A stretch of DNA of 6,208 nucleotides from a virus (IMGVR_UViG_2695420382_000003:1-6208); one strand, 5' to 3'. Positions 139 through 6,180 are shown, counted from the stretch's first letter. Numbers and translations: made by a program. Notes: generated by a model not told the origin, from the sequence alone.

Positions 139-167
139 ATTATGACAAATACAGCAAAAATACTCAA
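139..167 (-). promoter_or_regulatory. pO promoter driving oop (sigma70-like)
   Basis: On the minus strand: -35 TTGAGT (plus 162-167), 17-bp spacer, -10 CATAAT (plus 139-144). The predicted start falls ~7 nt downstream, at the oop 5' end (~131). It lies inside the first codons of O, as in lambda. Confidence 0.5.
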
Positions 168-1080
168 CTTCGGCAGAGGTAACTTTGCCGGACAGGAGCG
201 TAATGTGGCAGATCTCGATGATGGTTACGCCAGATTATCAAATATGCTGCTTGAGGCTTATTCAGGCGCAGATCTGACCAAGCGACAGTTTAAAGTGCTG
301 CTTGCCATTCTGCGTAAAACCTATGGGTGGAATAAACCAATGGACAGAATCACCGATTCTCAACTTAGCGAGATGACAAAGTTACCTGTCAAACGGTGCA
401 ATGAAGCCAAGCTAGAACTCGTCAGAATGAATATTATCAAGCAGCAAGGCGGCATGTTTGGACCAAATAAAAACATCTCAGAATGGTGTATCCCTCAAAA
501 CGAGGGAGGTTCCCCCAAAATGAGGGATATCCCTCAAAACGAGGGAAAATCCCCTAAAACGAGGGATAAAACATCCCTCAAATTGGGGGATTGCTATCCC
601 TCAAAACAGGGGGACACAAAAGACACTATTACAAAAGAAAAAAGAAAAGATTATTCGTCCGAGAATTCTGGCGAATCCTCTGACCAGCCAGAAAACGATC
701 TTTCTGTGGTTAAACCGGATGCTGCAATTCAGAGCGGCAGCAAGTGGGGAACAGCAGAAGACCTGACCGCCGCAGAGTGGATGTTTGACATGGTGAAGAC
801 TATCGCGCCATCAGCCAGAAAACCGAATTTTGCTGGGTGGGCTAACGATATCCGCCTGATGCGTGAACGTGACGGACGTAACCACCGCGATATGTGTGTG
901 CTTTTCCGCTGGGCCTGCCAGGACAACTTCTGGTCCGGTAACGTGCTAAGTCCGGCCAAACTCCGCGACAAGTGGACCCAGCTCGAAATCAACCGTAACA
1001 AGCAACAGGCAGGCGTGACAGCCAGCAAACCAAAACTCGACCTGACAAACACTGACTGGATTTACGGGGTGGATTTATGA
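142..1080 (+). CDS. O: Replication initiator protein O (origin-binding), 312 aa
   Basis: The translation is near-identical to lambda O as I recall it (MTNTAKILNFGRGNFAGQERNVADLDDGYARL... WIYGVDL). An AGGAG Shine-Dalgarno precedes the ATG. The iteron array lies inside the coding sequence. The protein is ~13 aa longer than lambda O because of two extra iterons. The stop overlaps the P start (ATGA). Confidence 0.95.
   Translation: MTNTAKILNFGRGNFAGQERNVADLDDGYARLSNMLLEAYSGADLTKRQFKVLLAILRKTYGWNKPMDRITDSQLSEMTKLPVKRCNEAKLELVRMNIIKQQGGMFGPNKNISEWCIPQNEGGSPKMRDIPQNEGKSPKTRDKTSLKLGDCYPSKQGDTKDTITKEKRKDYSSENSGESSDQPENDLSVVKPDAAIQSGSKWGTAEDLTAAEWMFDMVKTIAPSARKPNFAGWANDIRLMRERDGRNHRDMCVLFRWACQDNFWSGNVLSPAKLRDKWTQLEINRNKQQAGVTASKPKLDLTNTDWIYGVDL
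491..614. repeat. Lambda-type replication origin iteron array: six ~17-18 bp dyad-symmetric iterons (TCCCTCAAAACGAGGGA-like) at ~20 bp spacing
   Basis: Direct repeats at 491-507, 511-527, 530-546, 550-566, 574-590 and 597-614. Each has a TCCC(T/C)C arm, an A-rich centre and a (G)AGGGA arm. The first and third copies are identical. Confidence 0.85.
615..655. promoter_or_regulatory. A/T-rich DNA-unwinding segment flanking the iterons
   Basis: ACACAAAAGACACTATTACAAAAGAAAAAAGAAAAGATTATT lies immediately right of the last iteron. This is the same arrangement as the lambda origin. Confidence 0.6.
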
Positions 1081-2243: not shown

Positions 2244-2714
2244 ATGGTGAGGCAAATATACATGCTTCGCAACGAAGCAATCAGAAATAACGCCATAGAC
2301 GCAATACTCTCACTTCCGATCGACGACAAGTCACCTCACGAAGTCCACGTTAAAGAACCAAAGCGGAGCAATCCTCAAAACCGCCTTATGTGGGCGTTAT
2401 TGCGGGACGTATCGCGTCAGGTGCTTTGGCATGGAGAGAGACTTGCGCCGGAAGACTGGAAAGACCTGTTCACTGCCCTGTGGCTTAAGACCAAAAAACT
2501 GGAGCAACGAAGTGCGCCTGGTATCGACGGTGGCGTTGTTATGCTTGGCGTGCGTACCAGCAAAATGCGAAAGGCCAACATGACTGAGCTTATCGAAATC
2601 ATGTTCTGGTTCGGCTCAGAGCGCAACGTGCGGTGGAGTGATGACTCCCGGCGAGAGTATGAATGGTCACAACGGAAAGGTAACACGGACAATATGCGAG
2701 GGTTGAATGATTAA
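2244..2714 (+). CDS. ninB: NinB (Orf-family recombination mediator), 156 aa
   Basis: A strong Shine-Dalgarno (AAGGAGGT) sits 4 nt upstream of the ATG. The translation shares conserved blocks with lambda NinB as I recall them (NPQNRLMWALLRDVSRQVLWHGERL..WK..FTA; ..TSKM...E..ELIE....FG.ER.V.WSD). Confidence 0.85.
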   Translation: MVRQIYMLRNEAIRNNAIDAILSLPIDDKSPHEVHVKEPKRSNPQNRLMWALLRDVSRQVLWHGERLAPEDWKDLFTALWLKTKKLEQRSAPGIDGGVVMLGVRTSKMRKANMTELIEIMFWFGSERNVRWSDDSRREYEWSQRKGNTDNMRGLND

Positions 2715-3237
2715 GCATAAATCAGAAACACCAAAAGAAGTTAGAGACTGCTGGAAAACGCCGCTTTGGCTTTTTGATGCACTGGATATTGAGTTTGGAT
2801 TCTGGCTGGATTCGGCAGCGAGCGACAAAAATGCTCTGTGTGCTCACTGGCTAACTGAGGCCGACGACGCGCTCAATTCTGAGTGGGTAAGCCACGGTGC
2901 AATCTGGAATAACCCACCGTACAGCAATATCAGGCCGTGGGTGGAAAAAGCCGCTGAGCAGTGCATACAACAGCGACAGACGGTAGTTATGCTTGTGCCA
3001 GAGGATATGTCAGTCGGATGGTTCAGCAAGGCTCTGGAGAGTGTCGACGAAGTTCGCATTATCACTGATGGACGGATTAATTTTATCGAACCATCGACAG
3101 GGCTGGAGAAGAAGGGAAACAGCAAAGGCTCCATGCTGCTGATTTGGCGACCGTTCATCAGTCCTCGACGGATGTTTACTACCGTATCCAAAGCGGCATT
3201 GATGGCGATCGGGCAGGGCGTCAGGAGGGCAGAATGA
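2707..3237 (+). CDS. Phage orphan DNA N6-adenine methyltransferase (Dam-like), 176 aa
   Basis: The translation contains the catalytic NPPY motif (..[11 protein letters not shown]..) typical of N6-adenine methyltransferases. Its size and layout fit the phage Dam-type family. The start overlaps the ninB stop and the stop overlaps the ninE start. No adjacent restriction endonuclease gene is present. Confidence 0.8.
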
Positions 3238-3410
3238 GACGACAGCGACGAAGCATCACCGACATCATCTGCGAAAACTGCAAATACCTTCCAACGAAGC
3301 GCTCCAGAAATAAACGCAAGCCAATCCCAAAAGAATCTGACGTAAAAACCTTCAACTACACGGCTCACCTGTGGGATATCCGGTGGCTAAGACATCGTGC
3401 GAGGAAATGA
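3234..3410 (+). CDS. ninE: NinE, 58 aa
   Basis: The translation [58 protein letters not shown] matches lambda NinE as I recall it. The start is the ATG at 3234, internal to the longer 88-aa track ORF, and overlaps the methyltransferase stop (ATGA). Confidence 0.85.
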
Positions 3411-3451
3411 CTATTTATCCGGTGCGCCGCCAGAATGACGGCGCGGTGTGG

Positions 3452-3760
3452 TTAAACGAAGCGGATCTGGAGTTTTTTTCCAGTAGCGCGGGCGAATTTT
3501 TTTAGGGTGGCAAATGATGGGCCGCTGATACCTGATGCGAGATTACTTTCCATTCTGGTGATCGCGGTCGCTTTTGTTCCCATTCGCTCGGCAACTTCAG
3601 CCTGAGTTAAGCCAGCTTCTTTGCGTGCTGCCAGCATTTCATCAAGCAGTGCGAATTCGTCAGCGATAGCGTCGTATTCTGCTTTAAAAGCCGGGTCTTC
3701 CATCCATTTGGCTGCCATTTCGTCGTGTGTCATGGTGGGGAGAGTGCGTTTACCAGTCAT
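3452..3760 (-). CDS. XRE-family HTH antitoxin (HigA-like), 102 aa
   Basis: A perfect Shine-Dalgarno AAGGAGGT lies 5 nt upstream of the ATG, inside the toxin 3' end. The translation has a helix-turn-helix signature (GLTQAEVAERMGTKATAITRMESN) and a C-terminal tail (LKKFARATGKKLQIRFV) typical of antitoxins partnered with Gp49/HigB-like toxins. It overlaps the upstream toxin ORF by 11 nt. Confidence 0.8.
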   Translation of the reverse strand: MTGKRTLPTMTHDEMAAKWMEDPAFKAEYDAIADEFALLDEMLAARKEAGLTQAEVAERMGTKATAITRMESNLASGISGPSFATLKKFARATGKKLQIRFV

Positions 3761-4079
3761 GCTTAACCTCCTTCATTCTGGTTTCAGCTTTCTTGCGTTC
3801 GGCTGGCGGTGTTTTCTGCGTTTTCTTTACAAAACTATGCAGCATGATGATGCGTTTCCCTGTCAGAGTGCAGTAAAAAACACGCGCGATCCCATCGTTG
3901 CCTTTAATTCTGAGTTCGAAAAGCCCGTCACCAAAGGCGCTGGTGTGAGGTTCTCCGAGATTGCTGCCATATATCTTCATACGTTCAACGAGATGTTGGT
4001 ATCGGGCACGCATACTCAATGGAAGCCGATCGACTTCCAGCCTTACATCTTCACTGTAGTATTCGATAGTGTAGTTCAT
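3750..4079 (-). CDS. RelE/ParE-superfamily toxin (HigB / Gp49-like), ~109 aa
   Basis: The translation from the ATG at 4079 is MNYTIEYYSEDVRLEVDRLP...GDGLFELRIKGNDGIARVFYCTLTGKRIIMLHSFVKKTQKTPPAERKKAETRMKEVKHDW. The C-terminal H.F.KKTQKTP..E...A motif is characteristic of Gp49-like RelE-family toxins. The gene order is toxin first, antitoxin second, as in higBA. The start is uncertain: ATG at 4091 is an alternative, the 154-aa track ORF start at 4214 is unlikely, and there is no obvious Shine-Dalgarno. Confidence 0.75.
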   Translation of the reverse strand: MNYTIEYYSEDVRLEVDRLPLSMRARYQHLVERMKIYGSNLGEPHTSAFGDGLFELRIKGNDGIARVFYCTLTGKRIIMLHSFVKKTQKTPPAERKKAETRMKEVKHDW

Positions 4080-4124
4080 AGGTATCAACATAACAAAATC
4101 GTTATATGCATTCAAGGCCTGTAG

Positions 4125-4154
4125 TTGACGACAACACATATCCGGGGCTATATT
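4125..4154 (+). promoter_or_regulatory. Candidate sigma70 promoter reading rightward
   Basis: -35 TTGACG (4125-4130), 18-bp spacer, -10 TATATT (4149-4154). The predicted start is near 4161. It overlaps the left arm of the 10-bp inverted repeat. Confidence 0.35.
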
Positions 4155-4201
4155 CCTCACGCGCCAGCAAAATCTGGCGTCGGGATTGGAACCCCGGATA
4201 T
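4138..4201. repeat. Nested palindrome: perfect 10-bp inverted repeat ATATCCGGGG / CCCCGGATAT enclosing an inner 6-bp inverted repeat CGCCAG / CTGGCG
   Basis: Outer arms are at 4138-4147 and 4192-4201. Inner arms are at 4162-4167 and 4174-4179, and TTCC (4153-4156) pairs with GGAA (4188-4191). The two centres are within 1 bp of each other. This is a candidate operator, or an RNA hairpin if transcribed. Confidence 0.6.
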
Positions 4202-4214
4202 CGAAACGGTGCAT

Positions 4215-4234
4215 ACCGCGCTGGCGGTTTTTTT
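4215..4234 (+). terminator. Candidate short intrinsic terminator or attenuator (+ strand only)
   Basis: 5-bp GC-rich stem ACCGC / GCGGT with a GCTG tetraloop, followed by a 7-T run (4228-4234). The stem is short, so this call is tentative. Confidence 0.35.
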
Positions 4235-4397
4235 ATGCGCTAAGCACAGTCACATTCGCGATTTATGGCGGGCTGTGTGGGGGCACCGAAAGGTGCGCCG
4301 GATGTTTCGACCGGTAGTTCCAACCCTGCACAGTTCGCCACCCGATGATTGGAACCTGAAGGTGGTGAGGTAAAAATTATCGAAACGCGAGGTCGTT

Positions 4398-5084
4398 ATG
4401 ACTGTTCAAGTTGCTGTCAAAAACCTTTCCCCTGTCACTTATAACCAGATTCCTGTAATCACAACTGAGTTACTCGCCCGCCTTTACGGAACAGAAGCAA
4501 TCCGTATACAGCAGAATCACCATGAAAATAAATCTCGATTTATTGAGGGAAAACACTTCTTTAAAGCTGTTGGTGATGAGCTCAAAAATTTGCGACTAGT
4601 TTTAAACGAGTCGCAAAATGAGGTGAAAATTTCTCCAAAAACCCGCTCCCTCATCCTCTGGACAGAACGCGGCGCAGCTCGTCACGCGAAGATGCTCGAA
4701 ACCGATCAGGCATGGGACGTGTTCGAAAAACTGGAAGACTGCTATTTCAGCCAGACTTCGAAAAGCGCAGGTCATCACGAGAAGAAAACCAGCGAGCTTT
4801 CTGCAAAAGATGCAAACAGTCTGGTATGGTTGTGGGATTATGCCAACCGCTCACAGGCATTATTCCGCGAACTGTATCCGGCGCTAAGACAAATTCAGTC
4901 TAACTATTCCGGCAGATGCCACGACTACGGTCATGAGTTCTCGTATGTTATCGGAATGGCGAGAGACGTTTTAATCAATCACACACGAGATGTTGATATT
5001 AATGAGCCAGACGGACCAACGAATCTTTCTGCATGGGTAAGACTTAAGAACAAAGAATTACCTCCTTCACTACATCACTACTGA
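4398..5084 (+). CDS. ORF6N (KilA-N-like) domain protein with an uncharacterised C-terminal half, 228 aa
   Basis: GAGG lies 5 nt upstream of the ATG. The N-terminal ~115 aa carry an ORF6N-like signature ([36 protein letters not shown] ... [34 protein letters not shown]). The C-terminal ~110 aa match no family I recognise. Confidence 0.8.
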
Positions 5085-5126: not shown

Positions 5127-5158
5127 TTGCTGAATTTTCAATATGAGAGGACATGACA

Positions 5159-5413
5159 ATGAACGAGCTGATAAATAGCAACGCCATTAAAATGACCAGC
5201 ATTGAAATCGCTGAGTTGGTGGGTAAGCGTCATGACAATGTGAAACGTACCATCGAAACGCTGGTTAAAAGTGGAGTTATCCGGCTTCCTCAAATTGAGG
5301 TTTCCGAAAGAATCAATAAATTAGGGTTCAATGTTCAGTACGAGCATTACGTCTTCGAAGGCGAACAAGGTAAGCGCGACAGCATTATTGTCGTTGAAGG
5401 AGGTGTTGCATGA
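5159..5413 (+). CDS. Stand-alone Rha-domain (Phage_pRha-like) small DNA-binding protein, ~84 aa
   Basis: The translation has the Rha-family N-terminal signature (MTSIEIAELVGKRHDNVKRTIETL). GAGAGG lies 8 nt upstream of the ATG at 5159; the track start at 5153 is too close to that Shine-Dalgarno. The stop overlaps the start of the next gene (ATGA). Confidence 0.7.
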   Translation: MNELINSNAIKMTSIEIAELVGKRHDNVKRTIETLVKSGVIRLPQIEVSERINKLGFNVQYEHYVFEGEQGKRDSIIVVEGGVA

Positions 5414-6180
5414 ATGCCGTAATTATTGCCAACGCAGAAATCGTGCCGATTGAGTTTAATGGCGAGCGTGTTGTTACGTATCAAATGATTGCTGATATTC
5501 ACGGGGTTCCAGTAGCCACTATTCAAAATGGCTATGCGCGAAACTCTGAGTATTTCATAGACAGGGAAGATACATATTTTATTGATTTTCATGAAAATAC
5601 CTTTAGAAGGGGTTTTGAAATTCCTCCTCGTGGCATGCGAGTTTTCACTGAATCAGGCTATTTGATGCTGGTTAAAACCCTGCGCGACGAGACGGCGTGG
5701 AGAGTGCAACGTGAGCTTGTTCGCAATTATTTTCGTGGCCAAAAAGAAGATAAGTCAGCCTTGCCCGACTTCACAAACCCTGCTGAAGCCGCCAGAGCGT
5801 GGGCAAACGAATATGAGCAGAAAGTGAAGCTGGAGCAACAACTCGCGATTGCCGCACCTAAAGTTGAGTTTGCCGATCGCGTTGGCGAGGCCAGCGGAAT
5901 TTTGATTGGAAACTTTGCAAAGGTTGTTGGTATTGGCCCAAACAAACTGTTTGCGTGGATGCGTGATCACAAAATCCTTATTGCTTCAGGTTCCCGGCGC
6001 AATGTGCCAATGCAGGAATATATGGATCGCGGCTATTTCACAGTGAAAGAAACAGCGGTCAACACAAATCACGGAATACAGATATCGTTCACCACAAAAA
6101 TCACCGGGCGTGGTCAACAGTGGCTGACCAGAAAGCTGCTCGATAACGGAATGCTGAAAGTAACAGGGGAGGCTGCATGA
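5410..6180 (+). CDS. Phage antirepressor-like protein, ORF6N-like N-terminal domain plus KilA-C C-terminal domain (Roi-like), 256 aa
   Basis: The N-terminal domain parallels the 4398 gene (..VVTYQMIADIHGVPVATIQNGYARNSEYFIDREDTYF...RVFTESGYLMLVKTLRDETAWRVQRELVRNYF). The C-terminal half (PDFTNPAEAARAWANEYEQKVKLEQQLAIAAPKVEFADRV...GYFTVKETAVNTNHGIQISFTTKITGRGQQWL) has the KilA-C / Ant C-terminal signature. Its nin-region position is consistent with HK022-type Roi, but I cannot confirm that identity from memory. Confidence 0.85.
   Translation: MNAVIIANAEIVPIEFNGERVVTYQMIADIHGVPVATIQNGYARNSEYFIDREDTYFIDFHENTFRRGFEIPPRGMRVFTESGYLMLVKTLRDETAWRVQRELVRNYFRGQKEDKSALPDFTNPAEAARAWANEYEQKVKLEQQLAIAAPKVEFADRVGEASGILIGNFAKVVGIGPNKLFAWMRDHKILIASGSRRNVPMQEYMDRGYFTVKETAVNTNHGIQISFTTKITGRGQQWLTRKLLDNGMLKVTGEAA

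Follow-up and report, generated by a model that had tools for sequence, protein, structure and literature searches.

The two-gene unit described here has its closest described relatives in genes 49 and 48 of phage N15, which founded the Pfam family PF05973 and are members of the Tad-Ata family of toxin-antitoxin systems. The pAMI2 tad-ata pair and the SXT homologues are also included in this family. The Tad-Ata group was tied to RelE by Makarova et al. (PMC2701414). As cited in PMC2701414 and PMC5906591, Tad-Ata is reported to be a stabilising toxin-antitoxin system (Dziewit 2007). According to Armalyte et al. (PMC5906591), the toxin gene comes first in every member of the group, and Dziewit et al. 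2007 validated it. The present unit shares 46% identity with N15 gp49 in its toxin and 38% with gp48 in its antitoxin (E 2e-15). Both units have the toxin gene first and an antitoxin of the XRE-HTH type, are carried by a temperate coliphage, and are opposed in direction to their neighbours. There are differences in how the genes are joined and translated. N15 gp49 has a normal Shine-Dalgarno sequence (caggagg), whereas the subfamily described here lacks one, with only 7 nt between the -10 hexamer and the ATG. Genes 49 and 48 meet stop-to-start, whereas the two genes here overlap by 11 nt.

Among characterised structures, HigBA of Streptococcus pneumoniae (6AF3/6AF4) matches both partners best, in sequence as well as in structure. 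It differs in being the chromosomal module of a Gram-positive organism, with an identity of only about 20% by structural alignment, and the beta2-beta3 loop of its HigB is of a different length from that of the toxin described here. The HigB1 of Mycobacterium tuberculosis (7NBU/7AWK), from the TAC system, has the Gp49-like RelE fold and the long C-terminal helix in common with it. TAC and E. coli HigBAC are three-gene systems with a SecB-like chaperone, whereas there are two genes here. Membership of the TAC/HigBAC group was therefore rejected, as the antitoxin gene is followed by no third gene, only by a hairpin and then the ninE stop codon. The RelE/ParE fold is also shared with RelBE and with the classical HigBA systems (Proteus Rts1, E. 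coli K-12 HigB/YgjN, and V. cholerae HigB2), and the latter have the same reversed gene order and XRE antitoxin.

The window, which is the whole stretch of 6,208 nt that was analysed, corresponds to the early-right region in a lambdoid prophage of the Stx-phage-like type. On its plus strand are O (142-1080), P (1077-1778), an ORF at the position of ren, ninB (2244-2714), a Dam-family methyltransferase gene (2707-3237), and ninE (3234-3410), followed at a distance by antirepressor-type genes with ORF6N and P22AR_C domains (4398-5084), with an N-terminal fragment of Rha (5153-5413), and with ORF6N and KilAC domains (5410-6180). Between ninE and the first antirepressor gene there are two overlapping minus-strand ORFs, the flanking genes all being on the plus strand. 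A previous reading of this DNA, made from the sequence only, had described a two-gene module on the minus strand directly after ninE, and both ORFs are indeed present there. A plus-strand ORF of 167 aa (3621-4124), antisense to this pair, was regarded as spurious, since it is the minus-strand genes that have the family matches and show purifying selection. The window is not present intact in any of the complete E. coli genomes searched, with the best match having 86% coverage at 97.4%, and some part of it is matched in 4278 of the 5426.

Comparison with related prophages indicates that the module is a real insertion, a mobile cassette of approximately 0.7 kb (about 3411-4125). In phage AU5Stx1, which shares the ninB-dam-ninE and antirepressor genes, ninE runs straight into the sequence found on the right of the cassette. 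The proposal of the sequence-only reading that the module had been inserted convergently after ninE is thus borne out, with the module reading against the early-right operon. That reading had further equated the site with the position of ninF and ninG in lambda. The location after ninE stands, but a more accurate description of the site is the left boundary of the IsrK/C4-antirepressor unit. Most related Stx-type prophages do not have the cassette. Of 5426 complete E. coli genomes, 31 have it, in each case in the chromosome. The segment immediately to the right (4139-4394) is present in about 180 phage records; more than 140 have it without the cassette and only five have both.

Among the carriers, the cassette is found in three flanking contexts. 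It follows ninE, as in the window, in FDAARGOS_943; it follows a DnaC-type replication block and a small ORF in POCJ13, 75/02 Stx, PhiR5_2, G1/2, and 2012C-4502; and it follows YmfL-DUF4222 in TUM9812. Prophages of Salmonella and Edwardsiella carry close relatives, with 74-89% protein identity. The relative in Photorhabdus is chromosomal, adjoins sbcB, and is outside of any prophage, and the nearest relative on a plasmid is 66% identical and is found on Acinetobacter plasmids. No tRNA genes that could account for the insertion site were found. A search of the junctions for a target-site duplication returned only microhomology (CAAGG / TATCCGG), and because this is ambiguous no mechanism of insertion is claimed.

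The toxin gene is on the minus strand at 3750..4079 and encodes 109 aa, starting MNYTIEYY from the ATG at 4079 and ending with the TAA at 3752-3750. An in-frame ATG is present at 4091, inside the predicted -10 hexamer, and the module had previously been taken to span 3452-4091. The antitoxin end of that span holds, and the toxin start moves to 4079. The N-terminus generated from this codon, MNYTI or MxYTI, is that of 30 homologues from many proteobacteria, and a toxin gene of 330 nt is called by RefSeq in a genome with 100% identity to the window at 3411-4140. The E. coli TUM9812 allele has a stop codon between the two ATGs (MF*LMNYTI...). The homologue starts, the RefSeq call and the TUM9812 stop codon rule out the start at 4091, and likewise the mechanically predicted ORF of 154 aa from 4214. 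The full-length match to PHROG 2523 also begins at the methionine of 4079, which is residue 5 of the 113-aa reading. The gene is truncated or mis-called in several database records, including that of TUM9812, in which a gene recorded as 'truncated' is actually full length.

The toxin scores 90.3 bits with Pfam PF05973 (Gp49), for which the cut-off is 23.9, at E 8e-26 and over positions 3-90 of the 90-position profile, which places it within the Gp49-like/Tad family. No other Pfam family was matched at E <= 0.01, and NCBIfam returned only a sub-threshold RelE/ParE match (TIGR02683, at 21 bits where the cut-off is 62.85). Assignment to the classical HigB family of the Proteus and E. coli K-12 type was rejected, since there is no match to the model of that family. 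The upstream ORF therefore gives the Gp49-like/RelE match and the downstream ORF the HTH_XRE match that the sequence-only reading had expected of profile searches. Its description of a RelE/HigB-type toxin is sound as regards the RelE/ParE fold, which is predicted, with the toxin belonging to the Gp49/Tad branch instead of the classical HigB Pfam family.

An AF2 model of the toxin, built on an alignment of the 30 homologues, has a pLDDT of 91 and a pTM of 0.83. Its elements are a strand at residues 4-7, helices at 10-17 and 21-37, four long strands, and a helix at 92-106. The predicted fold is that of RelE with a long C-terminal helix, consistent with the Gp49-like fold. The top Foldseek matches to this model were S. 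pneumoniae HigB (6AF4/6AF3, TM 0.75-0.79, with 6AF4 at 0.76-0.79), followed by M. tuberculosis HigB1 (7NBU/7AWK, TM 0.74-0.78, with 7AWK at 0.78), which was also found with the profile of the 30 homologues. At lower ranks were YafQ, RelE, YoeB, HigB2, and ParE, of which HigB2, RelE, YafQ, and YoeB had TM of 0.5-0.6.

The active-site residues differ among the Gp49-like, classical HigB, and RelE branches (PMC9098466). The catalytic pocket was read against that of HigB1, a ribosome-dependent mRNase for which there is a ribosome-bound structure (PMC9098466). In the profile alignment, 7 of the 9 pocket residues are retained, with toxin E55, R57, R66, F83, K85, Q88, and K89 aligned with HigB1 E66, R68, R77, F93, K95, Q98, and K99. 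The two that are not kept are K58 and N73 of HigB1, which are S47 and D62 in the toxin. Toxin E55, R57, F83, and K85 also align with the catalytic E66, R68, F90, and K92 of the S. pneumoniae HigB (6AF3). Across the alignment of 30 homologues E55, R57, R66, F83, K85, and K89 are invariant, and the toxin of the window has every residue that is invariant in the family. Non-toxic Gp49-like proteins exist in M. tuberculosis, where HigB2 and HigB3 lack several of the pocket residues (PMC9098466), and the pattern in the toxin is unlike theirs. Because most of the pocket residues are retained, unlike those of HigB2 and HigB3, we infer that the toxin is probably an active ribosome-dependent mRNase.

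The antitoxin gene is also on the minus strand, at 3452..3760, and encodes 102 aa with an XRE/Cro-type HTH after an N-terminal extension, as in HigA and Ata. The HTH_3 match covers residues 44-98 (E 3e-11). Its best match in the PDB is HigA (6AF3_B, E 0.001), the toxin matching the other chain of the same structure, and the protein is thus homologous to validated cognate antitoxins. With the toxin at 4079..3750 and the antitoxin at 3760..3452, sharing 11 nt, the operon is toxin-first as had been noted previously, in the manner of HigBA-type and Tad-Ata operons. The perfect Shine-Dalgarno sequence that had been described for the antitoxin within the 3' end of the toxin gene was also located. 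It is AAGGAGGT, read from the sequence at 3766..3773 on the minus strand (3773-3766), inside the toxin ORF, with a spacing of 5 nt to the antitoxin ATG at 3760, and the alleles of POCJ13 and PhiR5_2 have it unchanged.

Comparison of alleles placed the dN/dS of the toxin at 0.02-0.17 and that of the antitoxin at 0.03-0.39, dS reaching about 1.7. The toxin value stays at 0.1-0.17 in alleles that have dS up to this level. These ratios indicate that both genes are under purifying selection and, with the Pfam matches, show that the two ORFs are not paired by chance. The amino-acid differences between alleles are concentrated in toxin residues 10-47, which are helices alpha1-alpha2 of the model, and in antitoxin residues 14-25, whereas the catalytic toxin half and the antitoxin HTH domain are near-invariant. 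The two variable segments co-vary in 7 of the 7 pairs compared, giving two interface types, in each of which the toxin and antitoxin variants are always found together. One type is present in the window, POCJ13, TUM9812, and Edwardsiella, and the other in G1/2, PhiR5_2, Salmonella, and Photorhabdus. This fits with an antitoxin N-terminal segment that would grip the helical face of the toxin and set the specificity of the pair.

A potential sigma-70 promoter for the module is present on the minus strand at 4087..4115, with a -35 of TTGAAT (4115-4110), a 17-nt spacer, and a -10 of TATGTT (4092-4087). The toxin ATG is exactly 7 nt past this -10. The built-in promoter and terminator scan reported only the plus-strand isrK promoter and terminator, not the minus-strand signals of the module, for which the basis is comparative conservation across alleles. 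The layout of TTGnnn, 17 nt, TATGTT, 7 nt, and ATG is kept in E. coli, Salmonella, Edwardsiella, and Photorhabdus, with TATATT as the -10 in Photorhabdus. The 7 nt themselves are variable among these four genera and are without a Shine-Dalgarno sequence. Because the -10 is only 7 nt before the ATG, this implies that the toxin message would be leaderless or near-leaderless.

Over the spacer and the -10 is a candidate palindromic operator (4088..4107) of the type ACATAACAA-nn-TTGTTATGT, within which ATAAC-N6-GTTAT is exact at 4090-4105. It has a single match in the window, with 0.01 expected by chance. Alleles from the four genera have a 20-22 bp palindrome, AACATAACAA-nn-TTGTTATGTT, over the spacer and -10. 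The palindromes in this same place are perfect at 10+10 bp in TUM9812, Salmonella, and Edwardsiella, and match at 9 of 10 in Photorhabdus. The promoter may therefore be autoregulated through this candidate operator, with the antitoxin as the probable binder. Because the layout of operator, -10, and 7 nt is kept in four genera, including the non-phage chromosomal copy in Photorhabdus, the cassette appears to be autonomous.

At the other end of the cassette, the antitoxin stop (3452) is 41 bp from the converging stop of ninE. Between the two is a GC-rich hairpin, GCGCCGCCA-GAA-TGACGGCGC (3424..3444, inverted repeat I2), which on the minus-strand RNA has a folding energy of -16.6 kcal/mol (z -2.6). 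This hairpin is the left edge of the cassette, as homology with POCJ13, PhiR5_2, and the other alleles starts there. It is likely to be a 3'-end structure or putative terminator of the module transcript, and it has no U-tract.

Taken as molecular identity and mechanism, the module is probably a type II toxin-antitoxin 'moron', self-contained and belonging to the Gp49/Tad-Ata (HigBA-like) family. Its components are already known, RefSeq having identical proteins under the annotations of RelE/ParE-family toxin and HTH protein. The literature search found no functional study of this exact module, whether in POCJ13, PhiR5_2, or the Stx phages. In the lysogen the module would be transcribed from its own TTGAAT-17-TATGTT promoter. 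Translation of the toxin from the leaderless AUG at 4079 would be inefficient and that of the antitoxin, through the perfect Shine-Dalgarno within the 3' end of the toxin gene, efficient, so that the antitoxin would be in excess. From what is known of the family, the toxin is expected to have the RelE fold and to act as an mRNA endonuclease, cleaving A-site codons in a ribosome-dependent manner. On the basis of the co-variation and of 6AF3, the antitoxin N-terminal segment (about residues 14-25) may bind toxin helices alpha1-alpha2 and neutralise the toxin, and the HTH domain may act as a repressor of the operon through the 20-bp palindrome that covers the -10. When the supply of antitoxin stops, free toxin would shut translation down. 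The supply could be stopped by loss of the DNA, by shut-off of the host by an infecting phage, or by antisense read-through from pR during induction.

By analogy with N15, for whose gp49/gp48 pair stabilisation has been reported, the most likely role for this system is addiction, in which it would stabilise the cassette and its prophage segment, a conclusion that is much less certain than the identity of the module. The exclusion of other phages is possible as an additional effect. Phage N15 is a linear plasmid prophage with an obvious use for stabilisation, whereas the carrier here is an integrated lambdoid prophage. Two points were counted against the favoured explanation: an integrated prophage needs stabilising less than the plasmid prophage N15 does, and in the PhiR5_2 allele the toxin start codon is changed to ATA, so that a viable phage can do without the toxin. 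A serious rival to addiction, thought possible and the less probable of the two, is that the same machine has been selected for abortive-infection defence, where an incoming phage would shut off host transcription or trigger loss of the antitoxin, and the freed mRNase would halt translation before the cycle of that phage is complete. As a prophage moron with its own promoter and opposite orientation, the module is arranged for expression in the lysogen. HigB-type phage immunity also has a precedent in E. coli HigBAC, which defends against phage lambda and senses gpV (bioRxiv 10.1101/2024.02.24.581848), yet HigBAC relies on a SecB-like chaperone as its sensor and the module has no third gene in the 41 bp to ninE. 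At the level of domains, the C-terminal half of the toxin resembles the C-terminal region of the PADLOC protein NsnC (E 9e-10) and the antitoxin matches the generic HTH models capH and RmrA, but none of the defence systems catalogued in PADLOC 2.0 matches both proteins and no model fits the pair as a system. The Photorhabdus unit beside sbcB, being outside any prophage, also argues against a defence role.

It is extremely unlikely that the module is an inert, decaying passenger with ORFs that are intact through recent descent only. Its rarity (31 of 5426 genomes), the mis-called or truncated toxin genes in several database records, and the loss of the toxin start codon in the PhiR5_2 allele could be taken in this way. 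Speaking against decay are a toxin dN/dS of 0.1-0.17 at dS up to about 1.7, the presence of all family-invariant residues in the window copy, and the conservation of promoter, operator, and Shine-Dalgarno across genera, and the 'truncated' gene of TUM9812 is really full length.

To the right of the cassette is the IsrK/C4-antirepressor unit. An IsrK-family sRNA (4161-4234, 72 bits), an overlapping c4-a1b1 element, and a C4 antisense RNA (4261-4345, 75 bits) are all above the Rfam gathering score. The isrK promoter, TTGACG-18-TATATT (4125-4154), is on the plus strand, as is the isrK terminator, and the first antirepressor gene comes after the C4 RNA. In Gifsy-1, IsrK governs translation of the downstream antirepressor AnrP (PMC4825925). 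The -35 elements of the module (4115-4110) and of isrK (4125-4130) are back-to-back, about 9 bp apart. The toxin ATG and the isrK 5' end are 76-82 bp apart, with the two units divergent, in the window, PhiR5_2, G1/2, TUM9812, and Salmonella, and the left flanks differ among the prophages that share this arrangement.

The recurrence of this spacing and of the back-to-back promoters, despite the differing left flanks, could suggest that the pair are domesticated regulators, with the HTH protein and a non-toxic Gp49-like co-factor mainly controlling the divergent IsrK/C4-antirepressor operon, much as Mnt is transcribed divergently from arc-ant in P22 immI. Non-toxic Gp49-like proteins have been described (PMC9098466), and in Edwardsiella a C4-like RNA and a Rha gene are on the same side, about 330 bp away. 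Such a regulatory role is nonetheless considered very unlikely. The catalytic residues are kept and invariant. A search of the whole window, the surroundings of the isrK promoter included, found no second copy of the operator, and the single copy is centred on the -10 of the module itself, ending 18 bp short of the isrK -35. More than 140 phage records have the right-hand segment without the cassette, and in one of them, AU5Stx1, isrK and C4 were confirmed. Conversely, there is no isrK beside the Photorhabdus copy, and the POCJ13 cassette is set apart from the antirepressor by 2 kb of inserted DNA.

The simplest reading of the adjacency of cassette and isrK is therefore co-inheritance at a recombination-prone module boundary. 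Because the back-to-back arrangement is kept across diverged E. coli and Salmonella alleles with differing left flanks, it could be that the state of the toxin-antitoxin pair gates or senses antirepressor expression, and hence prophage induction, or that the toxin acts on the isrK-ant message. This is unlikely, and no description of a toxin-antitoxin pair linked to a lysis-lysogeny RNA switch was found in the literature searched.

The module described here should be seen as one more prophage-borne cassette in a well-described family, with no change to existing concepts. The annotation of this cassette can now be corrected, with the toxin starting at 4079, as several public records truncate the gene. 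The layout conserved in four genera offers a testable route by which a toxin-first operon may keep its antitoxin in excess. If the adjacency to isrK were functional, it would tie a toxin-antitoxin pair to the control of prophage induction in Stx-type phages.

Immediately to the right of the toxin-antitoxin cassette, the window carries a set of small RNA elements on the + strand. An IsrK-family sRNA (4161-4234) is equipped with a promoter (4125-4154) and a terminator of its own. Its sequence overlaps that of a c4-a1b1 element (4148-4200), and a C4 antisense RNA (4261-4345) lies on its 3' side; all three RNAs score above the Rfam gathering threshold. Directly downstream of these elements (4125-4345) is an ORF6N/P22AR_C antirepressor gene (4398-5084, +). 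The RNA elements and the antirepressor gene together are a switch of the immI-like or Gifsy-1 isrK-anrP-like type. The nin region is the site of the IsrK/C4-antirepressor unit both here and in AU5Stx1, a related Stx phage without the cassette, and a search of phage records found the IsrK/C4 segment of the window in many other Stx-type phages as well.

Gene calls for the toxin vary between public records. The toxin gene is shortened to 87 aa in the record of POCJ13 (L001 3832-4095) and to 76 aa in those of PhiR5_2 and E. coli TUM9812 (L002 and L006, 3832-4062). The TUM9812 record also places the start of a Rha gene within the toxin gene (L006 4027-5028), in a call that spans isrK and C4; the actual toxin ORF in this strain is full length at 109 aa. 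The toxin gene of PhiR5_2 is the allele of E. coli G1/2 (L007) except for its start codon, which is ATA rather than ATG (L002 4159-4161). The change may be genuine, in which case a phage propagated on K-12 has naturally lost translation of its toxin; alternatively, it may be a sequencing error.

Several other features were noted. An 86-aa ORF (window 5153-5413, +), flanked by two antirepressor genes, aligns to the Phage_pRha model over its first 27 positions alone, and the equivalent of this ORF in the E. coli genome FDAARGOS_943 is marked as a truncated pseudogene. The O protein (gene at window 142-1080, +) contains a tandem peptide repeat, IPQNEGGSPKMRD / IPQNEGKSPKTRD, at about residues 118-143; in AU5Stx1 it corresponds to the ori iterons, which the annotation of that phage places within O. 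In Edwardsiella ictaluri, the prophage region containing the cassette relative has a second Gp49 and HTH pair (L013 5778-6429), and the same region in another strain has a ParE-like/ParD-like pair (L014 258-792). This prophage seems to accumulate toxin-antitoxin modules.

The presumed toxin-antitoxin interface (toxin residues 10-47, window 3941-4052; antitoxin residues 14-25, window 3686-3721) falls into two co-varying sequence types among the alleles of E. coli, Salmonella, Edwardsiella and Photorhabdus. The antitoxin HTH domain and the catalytic half of the toxin are near-constant across the same alleles. The two types may represent insulated pair specificities.

The toxin gene and isrK are divergent, with back-to-back promoters and 76-82 bp between the isrK 5' end and the toxin ATG (window 4079-4161; PhiR5_2 and G1/2, 4161-4240; TUM9812, 4161-4237; the Salmonella allele L009, 3925-4001). 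This arrangement is kept in Salmonella and, within E. coli, in prophages that have left flanks of three different kinds. In Edwardsiella a C4-like RNA (sRNA-Xcc1) and Rha are found on the same side of the cassette. The adjacency of toxin and isrK may reflect co-inheritance or a functional link.
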